Positions 10,001 through 13,000 of a stretch of DNA of 64,000 nucleotides are shown piece after piece. Under the pieces are notes generated by a model. It saw only the letters and a program-made list of their open reading frames with translations, was not told where the DNA came from and ran no database searches. The stretch spans positions 18,338,642 through 18,402,641 of the forward strand of contig CP154954.1 in NCBI GenBank assembly GCA_039621445.1. Reading direction: 5' to 3'. This DNA is from Euglena gracilis (taxonomy: Eukaryota). Each line of letters opens with the position of its first letter. Within the stretch, counting starts at the first letter, position 1. The position numbers and the translations under genes were made by a program.

Positions 10001-13000
10001 AAGATTACCCTCAGCATCAAGTGAGTACACCACCACACGGACAAGGGCATGATTTTTGCCTTCCATTCAATAAATTCCGTCACATTCATAAATTAGCCCA
10101 AAATTCTTGGCAACCGTCGTATTCATAGACCAAAAATTGAGAGGAGGGCTGCGTATTCCCAGGGTTGGACCCACCGTGGGCTGTGTGGGAAGGTGAGCTT
10201 CGTAATGGAAAATTCTTCCTTCAAAAGGTCGGAGGCGCCGCAGGAAAATTTTAACTAAAAATTGGCACATCTGATGAAAGTAGGGGACCCTCATTGAATT
10301 TCCAGGATTCCTGTTCAGCCTTGCCACCACGATCAAAGAGGGTGGGTCCACTTTAACCCAGACATATGTGGAACAGGCATTTTTTTTTAAGACCGGGGGG
10401 GAGGGGGTCCCCCCCCCACCCACCTACCTCCTGGCCCCCCCCCGGTGGGGTCCCGGGGGACCCACAAAAAAAAATGGCCGAAAAATATCGAAAAGTGCCA
10501 AAAAATAGCACTCTTTCGGCGCCTTCGGCGCCGAAAAGTATATCCCACCCCCCTCCGGGGGAAACCCCCGGGCGAGGCGGGGACTCCGCCGGACCCCCCC
10601 CCCCCCGGGGTCCACGACGAAAAAAACCCCTGATGTGGAACTCTTCTGGTGTCCTTGAAAATTTTTGTGGCAGGACAAGCAGAAAACAAAATGGCGAGGT
10701 ACCTCATCATGCTCTGAAAACACTCCACACCGCTTTGCCTGGGCCATGGTGTTGCAGGCGGTTGCTGAAGCCCTCGACGTCCGGGGAGCCCAGCCCTTTT
10801 CGCTCAGCATACTCCAGGGCCGGAGCTGCGTGACCCAGGGGTTTGTTTCACTTCCTCTTGCATTTCCACGCAGAATTACACAGCAGAGCAGAACTGTTTC
10901 CACACAGTTAATGGACACTGCAAGCAAGATAATGCCTTGATTCCGGGTCAGGTGAAACCCCCTGACCAGGCCTTCTTTTTTTTTAAGCGCCTTACCTCCC
11001 CCCCCCCCCCCGGCGCTTGGCCCGGGTCATGATTGAAGGCAAAGCCAGGGGGGCAACCTTAGACGGGGGGGGGGGGAGGTGAGAAGCATTACATTCCAGG
11101 AAGGATGACGAGACAACGATGGACCGCCAGCACACAGCCGAGGCATGGTGATTGCTGCCCATGAGATGCAGCCTGGGGGACACATCACATATGGAGCAAA
11201 AGGCGAAGCCTCCCATGCCAGAAACGGCCACCCAACCCCGTTCCACAGGTTCATGAACACATCGTCTCGGCTGTAGTTAATCGAATGGACAAGATCAAGG
11301 AAATTGGCCCCAACCTGAGTAATGGGAATGGAGGCCCTTCGTGAGAAGAAATGAGCAATCTGCTAATGTCGGCGGGTTGGAATTTTGGGCAACAACTTCC
11401 AGAGGAGGCACTCTCAGGACTTTTTAATGGGAAAAATCAGACCGTGTTGGCCGAAGGTGACACATTCTGGGGCAGGGGTTCAAAAACAGAAATGGTATGC
11501 ACACAAAAATGGGCGGAAATGGGCACAAAAAGGCGGCGGATCTGGCACTTAAAGATTTTCTCTTTGTCGACTTGTGAAATTGCACATACGACGATTTTTA
11601 CAAAAAACCTACCCCCCCCCCCCGGCGCTTGGCCCGGGCCATGATTGAAGGTAAAGCCAGGAGGTGAACCTCAGAGGGCCAAGATTGCATGTTAACAATC
11701 CAGGCGGCCATGCCAAAAGGCCAAAAGCCAACTTAGGGGCCAAGTTTGCATGTAAGGAGGAGGGGGGCAAGCGCCCAGGGGGGGGGTAAACTTGCTGACC
11801 ACCTCTGTCAGAGTTTTTTTTTAATTTTCGGCTTTCTGTGATCTAGGTTCTAATTCACAGACGTTTCGAATTCATTTTTCCTGACTAAATTTGCATGTGT
11901 CCTTTGAAATTGCCGGGTTTGGGTGTCCACTGGAATGAGAAACATAAGGTCAAAAGTGCGCGAAAAGCCTGGGAGGGAACCACCGCGGGCCGTGGCCGAC
12001 TAAATAAGGAATGCCGCCCCGGGGAAAAAGTAGGGTTTAGGTACCGGAGTTTTGCTGTATTTTTTTTGGTTTTTTTCCCGCTTTTGGGGAGCTTGGTCAT
12101 GGGGGTTTCGTGCCACTCCGACCAACCCACCCACCCACCCACCCACCCACCCACCCACCCACCCACACCCACACCCACCCACACCCACACACACCCACGC
12201 ACACACACGCACACACACACGCACACGCACACACGCACACACACACACACACACACACACACACACACACACACACACACACACACACACACACACACAC
12301 ACACACACACACACACACACACACACACACACACACACACACACACACACACACACACACACACACACACACACACACACACACACACACACACACACAC
12401 ACACACACACACACACACACACACACACACACCCCACCACACACACCACACACACACACACACACCCCACACACACCCCCACACAACACACACAAACCAC
12501 ACACAACACCCACACAACACCCACACACAACACACACACACACCACACACCCCACACACACAACACACACACACACACACAACGCACACACACAACACAC
12601 ACACACACACACACACACACACACACACACCCACACACACACACACACACACACACACACACACACACACACACACACACACACACACACACACACACAC
12701 ACACACACACACACACACACACACACACACACACACACACACACACACACACACACACACAGCAAAATCCACCAAAGTGCCAGGAGTGAGTGGGCCAAAA
12801 ATGACATTTCGCTCACATGTGTCGTCGTCATGCTCCCTCTTTCTCAAACTTGTACTTTATAGACTTACCAGTTTAAAATTCAAACTTTTCGACCCAGCAA
12901 AGCTAATCGTAATTGTACTCGACACAACAATGGAAGACACAGACACACAACAAGGGAGCGATTTACCGGCAAGGGCACAGCCGAAAAGCCTCCCGGTGAA

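Follow-up and report, generated by a model that had tools for sequence, protein, structure and literature searches.

The window analysed here is a stretch of 64,000 nt from Euglena gracilis (contig CP154954.1), and all coordinates below are positions within it. At 10374-10632 it carries a short non-coding element with CAG...CTG ends, which belongs to a family of MITEs (miniature inverted-repeat transposable elements), and which is flanked by a perfect 8-bp target-site duplication. The ends of this element agree with the splicing code published for the nonconventional introns of euglenids. The features at the site are listed below; none has a strand assigned.

10374-10632: MITE copy, non-coding, 259 bp, CAG...CTG ends
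10366-10373: left copy of the 8-bp target-site duplication, ATGTGGAA (direct repeat D7)
10633-10640: right copy of the 8-bp target-site duplication, ATGTGGAA (direct repeat D7)
10374-10386: left terminal inverted repeat, CAGGCATTTTTTT (inverted repeat I10)
10620-10632: right terminal inverted repeat, AAAAAAACCCCTG (inverted repeat I10)

The site reads ...AGAC-ATGTGGAA-CAGGCATTTTTTTTTAAGACCGG...GGTCCACGACGAAAAAAACCCCTG-ATGTGGAA-CTCTT.... According to the repeat listing, the terminal inverted repeat has a length of 13 nt and an identity of 85% (I10), and an inner pair of G/C arms has a length of 18 nt and an identity of 94% (I1). An earlier note on this DNA had described a MITE with these limits, ends and perfect duplication; both the sequence and the repeat listing confirm it, and all descriptive statements of that note proved correct. 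The RNA of the minus strand of the element folds with an energy of -155.8 kcal/mol (z -3.96), and none of 200 shuffled sequences folds equally well. In the predicted fold, CAG marks the exact opening of the outer stem and CUG its closing, and the flanks are single-stranded. Since the duplication is perfect, the insertion is suggested to be relatively young.

Relatives of the element were found in the window by blastn at 39890-40068 (86% over 183 nt) and 30396-30674 (70% over 284 nt), together with partial ones at 34553-34635 and 37926-38095. Alignment gave CAGGGGTTTTTT... and ...AAAAAAACCCCTG as the common ends of the family. The copies and their flanking 8-mers are as follows (no strand assigned):

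10374-10632: copy described above, flanks ATGTGGAA / ATGTGGAA, 8 of 8 identical
30391-30674: full-length copy, flanks GGCGAGTC / GGTGAGTC, 7 of 8
39884-40151: full-length copy, 3' end mutated to CTA, flanks GGCCACCC / GTCCACCC, 7 of 8
7948-8240: more distant relative (5' end shared, 3' end decayed), flanks GCCCCGAC / TCCCCGAC, 7 of 8
37926-38095: 3' partial copy ending in AAAAAAACCCCTG (blastn and alignment)
34547-34635: 5' partial copy starting with CAGGGGTTTTTTT, interrupted by simple repeats (blastn and alignment)
40206-40477: look-alike with ends CAGGGGTTTTTA...AAAAAAAACCTG and a different core, flanks 5 of 8

The 64 kb contain four full-length copies (that at 7948 included), two partial ones and the look-alike at 40206, with sizes of 259-293 bp. 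Family members have a typical length of ~260-290 bp, with G/C-rich self-pairing arms around an A/T-rich core and an 8-bp target-site duplication. Terminal inverted repeats, a duplication of fixed length and several small dispersed copies without coding capacity are the features by which MITEs are recognised, and all of them were found here. The register of the flanks was controlled in the four full-length copies by shifting the right 8-mer from -6 to +6. At shift 0 the identity of the flanks was 8, 7, 7 and 7 of 8; at the 12 other shifts it was 0-5 of 8, apart from a single value of 6 in a low-complexity flank rich in CCACCC. With uniform base frequencies, the probability of at least 7 of 8 matches is 3.8e-4 per copy, where for the copy at 7948 the 3' boundary was chosen with its repeat already seen.

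The copies are 71-77% identical across the aligned stretch including 20-nt flanks; at this level the family is not the product of a fresh burst, and the suggestion of the earlier note that the system may be active was not supported. For the terminal motif CAGGNNTTTTTT (at most 1 mismatch) the window gave 40 occurrences, where 15.8 +/- 3.8 were expected, and none of 100 shuffles reached 40. The bare pattern X8-CAG...CTG-X8 (40-3000 bp) occurs twice, against 0.98 expected from 100 Markov simulations, and taken alone it is no better than chance; its second instance (47319/48112) covers an exon of the peptidase gene described below. The element at 10374 is real because it is a member of a family, and its ends were set independently by alignment to the other copies. 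The elements at 39884-40151 and 40206-40477, which have CAGGGG...CCTG-type ends and differing cores, are separated by 54 bp, which suggests a local insertion hotspot or clustering. When a conserved 16-mer of the family was compared with metagenomes, none of the 118 loci among the matches listed (at least 118) carried the element beyond a chance match of 22 nt.

Nomura et al. (2025, PMC12501133) used knock-in mutagenesis to define the code of nonconventional splicing, which reads 5'-N3-CDG...CH'G-N5-6|R. According to that work, the donor spacer of 3 nt tolerates no change, and the acceptor spacer has 5 nt, where an insertion of one nucleotide still allows splicing with the transcript reduced by 30-40%. 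At the first position of the exon a purine is called for: the transcript became unstable when A was changed to C, and another intron accepted G or A alone. A pairing of ~12 nt inside CAG/CTG is also required (PMC12501133). The element at 10374 gives one predicted intron on each strand:

10371-10637, plus strand: predicted nonconventional intron, GAA-CAG...CTG-ATGTG, next exon base G, in agreement with the whole code
10369-10635, minus strand: intron predicted in the earlier note, CAT-CAG...CTG-TTCCA, next exon base C, in disagreement with the purine preference

On both strands CAG stands at +4 to +6 and CTG at -8 to -6, and 9 of 12 ungapped positions inside CAG/CTG are paired. The first downstream exon base is G on the plus strand. 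On the minus strand, to which the coding frame was assigned, it is C, and this strand agrees with every requirement of the code except the purine. The earlier note had added the two spacers, 3 + 5 = 8, and argued that excision would remove the element with exactly one copy of the duplication. This calculation holds, and the spacers are experimentally defined (PMC12501133). Its further claim, that this works in either orientation, stands for the arithmetic on both strands; as to the code, the whole of it is found on the plus strand only, and the minus strand departs from it at the first exon base. The efficiency of splicing is predicted to depend on position 6 of the duplication in the plus reading (purine) and on position 3 in the minus reading (pyrimidine).

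The window provides a positive control in the form of a gene of a peptidase M43 (pappalysin-like), located on the plus strand at 47556-58980 at least and containing at least 9 exons (Pfam; tblastn). The best database relative of its product is 75% identical (eukprot GGOE01014877.1.p1). The junctions were placed against the orthologue and two were inspected by eye; the upstream exons (N-terminal, aa 1-165) were not resolved by tblastn. Introns 4 and 6 are of the GT-AG type, as are introns 2 and 5 by eye, and another GT-AG intron is probably located at ~46792-47583. Two introns are nonconventional:

47715-49970, plus strand: M43 intron 1, GGC-CAG...CTG-CGGCG|G, flanking 8-mers 3 of 8 identical
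51451-51751, plus strand: M43 intron 3, GCC-CAG...CTG-TCCAC|G, flanking 8-mers TTCACGCC / TCCACGCC, 7 of 8 identical

Both fit the full code N3-CAG...CTG-N5|G on the strand of the gene, in one of the equivalent positions. In intron 3 the 7-of-8 repeat directly abuts CAG and CTG, and other registers give 1-4 of 8. One of the two testable introns supports a structure of an element plus one 8-bp duplicate, which is encouraging but comes from a sample of two. In intron 8, which was not placed to the base, CTG is found at -8 and the exon begins with A, but the triplet at +4 is TGG and not CDG; for intron 7 a base-exact placement was not reached. Family-like termini are present inside intron 8 (CAGGCATTTTTT at 56485) and intron 1 (CAGGGCCTTTTT at 49853), and such elements seem to nest in larger introns too.

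According to the earlier note, the element at 10374 interrupts a coding frame of the minus strand. Removal of 10369-10635 (267 nt = 3 x 89) keeps this frame, and the junction reads ...ENFQGHQKSS + TYVWVKVD... in the translations, as that note had given it. The open frame over the excised junction has 690 nt, or 230 codons. Open frames of at least 690 nt cover 15.7% of the positions of the window, or 6.8% without the open reading frames (ORFs) of reverse transcriptases and the large microsatellites, and 61 stop-free frames of at least 140 aa are present in the 64 kb. The regions 11880-12860, 34690-34770 and 54000-58600 consist of very long microsatellites, (CA)n/(GT)n and related ones, and of tracts rich in homopolymers. 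Open frames are weak evidence for a gene in this window, because such tracts make many long stop-free frames.

Searches for a homologue of the frame were negative. Pfam analysis gave no match for the two ORF halves, nor for the six frames of 7001-13002 read through stops. The next ORF downstream, 9767-10066 on the minus strand, gave a match to DDE_Tnp_1_7 with an E value of 0.14 and 11.8 bits against a cutoff of 22.4, which was taken as noise. For the 319-aa read-through of 10070-11026 (minus strand), 8000 candidates scored from a collection of 5.8 billion clusters included no relative with a length of 175-559 aa, and an exhaustive HMMER search found none at E <= 0.001 among 1,835,955,588 representative proteins. 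The GC content of third codon positions (GC3) is 0.47 in the downstream half and ~0.56 in the upstream half, versus 0.78 in the M43 exons and 0.51-0.56 in retroelement ORFs. A codon model trained on the M43 gene gave negative log-odds for each of the 12 frames in the two halves, and in the leave-one-out analysis the model was positive for 6 of 9 M43 exons in the true frame. Rfam and tRNA scans of 9-12 kb gave nothing at gathering score. With no Pfam family, no homologue, an ordinary length of the open frame, GC3 unlike that of the host gene and a first exon base (C) that the code disfavours, the claim of an interrupted coding frame is not supported. Taken together, these negative results speak against a gene at the site with weak to moderate force.

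The surroundings of the element are as follows. Neither of the flanks, 9930-10373 and 10633-11000, is repeated elsewhere in the window, and the unique stretch around the element extends over only ~800 bp. Dispersed repeats lie directly downstream on the minus strand (9488-9752 versus 28112-28359; 9792-9927 versus 5554-5700 and 1577-1665). The upstream end of the minus-strand frame (~10947-11026) meets other repeat fragments. A hairpin element with G/C arms is present in two copies, at 10984-11090 and 11612-11678 (90% over 67 nt), with generic miRNA-hairpin matches below threshold. Just upstream of the former, at 10947-10985, an apparent 3' MITE end (...AAACCCCCTG) lies 2 nt from a 5' MITE-like end (CAGGCCTTCTTTTTTTTTAAG).

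We consider it probable that 10374-10632 is a copy of a MITE family inserted outside a gene rather than a working intron, that the ends of the family agree with the intron code, and that copies landing in exons would be excised so as to restore the mRNA. The copy itself is most likely an ordinary intergenic or otherwise non-coding insertion. The proposed course of events would begin with a cut-and-paste transposase, which would make an 8-bp staggered cut and insert an element with CAG...CTG ends. After insertion into an exon, the inverted repeats would pair in the pre-mRNA, and the host machinery would cut at a distance of 3 nt on the upstream side of the stem and of 5 nt on its downstream side, ligate the exons and release a circle. 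The part removed would consist of the element and 3 + 5 = 8 nt, that is, one duplicate, and therefore the mRNA would regain its state before insertion. The junction of the circle is predicted to rebuild one full duplicate. The geometry of the cuts is that of the published code and the circle is taken from the literature; the connection with transposition is one that we infer, as are the action of the machinery on this family and the view that 3 + 5 = 8 is causal and not a coincidence.

A more general statement can be made only tentatively, and we hold it to be possible though somewhat less than an even chance: the spacers of 3 and 5 nt would sum to the 8-bp duplication of a CAG-terminated (hAT-like) class of elements, the pathway would serve as an eraser of transposons at the RNA level, and most nonconventional introns would be such insertions. 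The model in which an intron equals an element plus one duplicate is plausible. If the pathway is such an eraser, one rebuilt duplicate is expected where the ends of the excised RNA circle meet, and the tolerated orientation of an insertion should be set by positions 3 and 6 of the duplication through the purine rule. The equality of duplication length and spacer sum makes the idea of a MITE origin testable across the genome and would explain why the spacers measure 3 and 5 nt.

Several points weigh against these conclusions. As for the site itself, the in-frame removal that leaves 230 open codons is mildly suggestive of a coding exon. A lineage-specific (orphan) gene would escape all homology searches, and the protein collections evidently lack the proteome of this organism, because the best M43 match is 75% identical. 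Only 380 codons, all from a single gene, went into the training of the codon model. As for the family, window-wide scans for pairs of inverted repeats with duplications gave results equal to those of offset controls: in 87 CAG...CTG pairs with at least 11 of 14 ungapped inverted-repeat matches, a flank identity of at least 6 of 8 was found in the element at 10374 alone and the offset control was otherwise alike, and 371 pairs with flanks of at least 6 of 8 had inverted-repeat scores no better than those at offsets 9, 13 and 20. These scans are powerless, and copies with indels in the inverted repeats escape them. As for the general model, the repeat of M43 intron 1 (3 of 8) amounts to none, and for the core of intron 3 no second copy turned up in the window, so that it is a candidate MITE only. 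Copies acting as introns in unrelated genes are a mark of introners, and none of the five full-length family-like copies in the 64-kb window lies in a recognisable gene.

Three other explanations were considered. The first of them, which we regard as unlikely, places the copy in a transcribed region of another kind, namely a plus-strand transcript or untranslated region, or a larger intron in which it is nested, so that it would be spliced without coding consequence or removed passively. The agreement of the plus strand with the whole code, G as the first exon base included, would suit this explanation, and nesting is common in this window, since MITE-like termini occur inside M43 introns 8 and 1 (56485 and 49853). 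However, all three plus-strand frames stop within ~100 nt of the empty site, no gene was detected at 7-13 kb on either strand, and no positive sign of transcription was found.

According to the second explanation, the equality 3 + 5 = 8 is coincidental or the order of events is reversed, with introns arising from double-strand-break repair, or with circular intron RNA being reinserted so that the "MITEs" are scattered copies of introns. Break repair was proposed by the authors who described 8-nt repeats at intron junctions (PMC4770533), and excised introns are circular (PMC11282704, PMC12501133), a circle that rejoins 5 + 3 nt into a full duplicate. Scans of 39 of the 61 long open frames, of one 90-aa frame and of the six frames of 7-13 kb detected no transposase, hAT and dimerisation domains included, and the absence of a repeat at M43 intron 1 points the same way. 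Against this, at least five dispersed copies outside recognisable genes, with similar 13-nt inverted termini and a fixed 8-bp duplication, form the classic signature of cut-and-paste transposition. Break repair leaves the conserved sequence of the family unexplained, and DNA transposons with 8-bp duplications (Merlin) have been reported in E. gracilis (PMC8101967). We regard coincidence or reversal as improbable.

The remaining explanation, that the copy interrupts a live minus-strand exon and is erased as the nonconventional intron 10369-10635 to restore ...QKSS-T-YVWVKVD..., has in its favour the in-frame removal with 230 open codons, the CAG/CTG, spacers and stem on that strand and the unique flanks, but is very improbable given the empty Pfam and homologue searches, the ordinary length of the frame, GC3 of 0.47-0.56 like that of retroelement ORFs (0.51-0.56) and not of the host gene (0.78), a first exon base (C) disfavoured in the published assay (PMC12501133), and an upstream end of the frame that enters repeat fragments.

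The window also contains a retroelement, an open frame of 1038 aa at 60473-63586 on the minus strand with a reverse-transcriptase domain (RVT_1, E 2.2e-15). An open frame of 396 aa at 15791-17100 on the plus strand gave no Pfam match; an adjoining frame at 16278-16559 includes an "AFNTIDR"-like stretch that by eye resembles a reverse-transcriptase motif, and this region may be a second, decayed retroelement.

The superfamily of the 10374 family was assessed from its termini and duplications. The termini of hAT transposons follow the consensus YARNG, and their targets follow nTnnnnAn. The family shows the 8-bp duplication of hAT elements, and its termini read CAGGG at most ends and CAGGC at the 5' ends of the copies at 10374 and 7948. 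One of the four family duplications fits the target consensus. Our best guess for the superfamily, based on the 8-bp duplication and the CAG termini alone, would be hAT. Other superfamilies also make duplications of ~8 bp, for example the P element, and P element and similar superfamilies may be alternatives. Merlin transposons, which have been reported in E. gracilis, have 8-bp duplications and 5'-GG termini (PMC8101967). Merlin was rejected: the duplication abuts CAG/CTG, and a reading with GG termini leaves no flanking repeat.

The origin and removal of euglenid nonconventional introns have been an open question for ~30 years. An origin from MITEs was proposed in 2014 because of the inverted repeats and the repeats at the junctions, at a time when, according to the authors, euglenid genomes had yielded no transposable elements (Milanowski et al., PMC3935182). 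A 2024 review in Mob DNA (PMC11282704, Fig. 3D legend) gives CAG/CTG the label of inverted repeats and the repeats at the junctions that of target-site duplications. The suggestion of MITEs returns in the 2025 PNAS paper, according to which nonconventional introns make up 71.8% of E. agilis introns and 84.4% of the introns of this species are "slidable", with junction repeats (PMC12501133). A strain-specific, newly gained intron of the E. agilis gapC gene has eight-nucleotide direct repeats at its junctions, which its authors ascribed to double-strand-break repair (Milanowski et al. 2016, PMC4770533). Excised nonconventional introns have been described as circular RNAs (PMC11282704, PMC12501133). 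The prior proposals of a transposon origin to which the earlier note referred are therefore in print (PMC3935182, PMC11282704, PMC12501133).

In the running text of this literature, no statement was found that 3 + 5 equals the length of the duplication; the distribution concerned may already be contained in PMC12501133 (Fig. 1B, Fig. S3) and in PMC4770533 (Table S3). Within the same scope, no paper names a dispersed euglenid repeat family that complies with the code, and none links hAT to nonconventional introns, with Euglena and hAT appearing together only in the Merlin paper (PMC8101967). The core of the idea is already in print, and the gain is a sharper form of a known hypothesis and not a new phenomenon. 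The family provides a concrete example of the type of element from which nonconventional introns were proposed to arise.

Compared with nonconventional introns (PMC12501133, PMC3935182, PMC4770533), the element shares CAG at +4 to +6, CTG at -8 to -6, the stem, the unpaired spacers of 3 and 5 nt and the junction repeats. It differs from them in that the copy at 10374 is a predicted intron only, and that on the strand proposed to be coding its exon would begin with C and not with a purine. In the running text of the published work on these introns, the spacers are not tied to the length of the duplication and no dispersed repeat family is named. In comparison with the hypothesis of a MITE origin (PMC3935182, PMC11282704), what is described here is an actual multi-copy family, whose duplication is fixed at 8 bp and whose ends comply with the code. 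Merlin of E. gracilis (PMC8101967) is alike in its euglenid host and its 8-bp duplication and differs in its 5'-GG termini. The hAT elements Ac/Ds are alike in the 8-bp duplication, in short inverted repeats beginning with CAG and in a precedent for removal at the RNA level, as Ds in maize can act as an intron formed de novo (Giroux 1994, cited in PMC3935182). The splicing of Ds is spliceosomal and imprecise, unlike the precise excision proposed for the 10374 family.

A further comparison can be made with introners, which are DNA transposons that create introns on a genome scale in Micromonas/Aureococcus, dinoflagellates and Amoebophrya. Introners are removed by the spliceosome, by means of splice sites that the element and the duplication carry or from which they were co-opted. 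The 10374 family would resemble them as a non-autonomous element that is removed from the pre-mRNA together with a duplicate, so that the reading frame is restored. Its removal would differ in using the structure-measuring, circle-forming pathway of euglenids and not the spliceosome.

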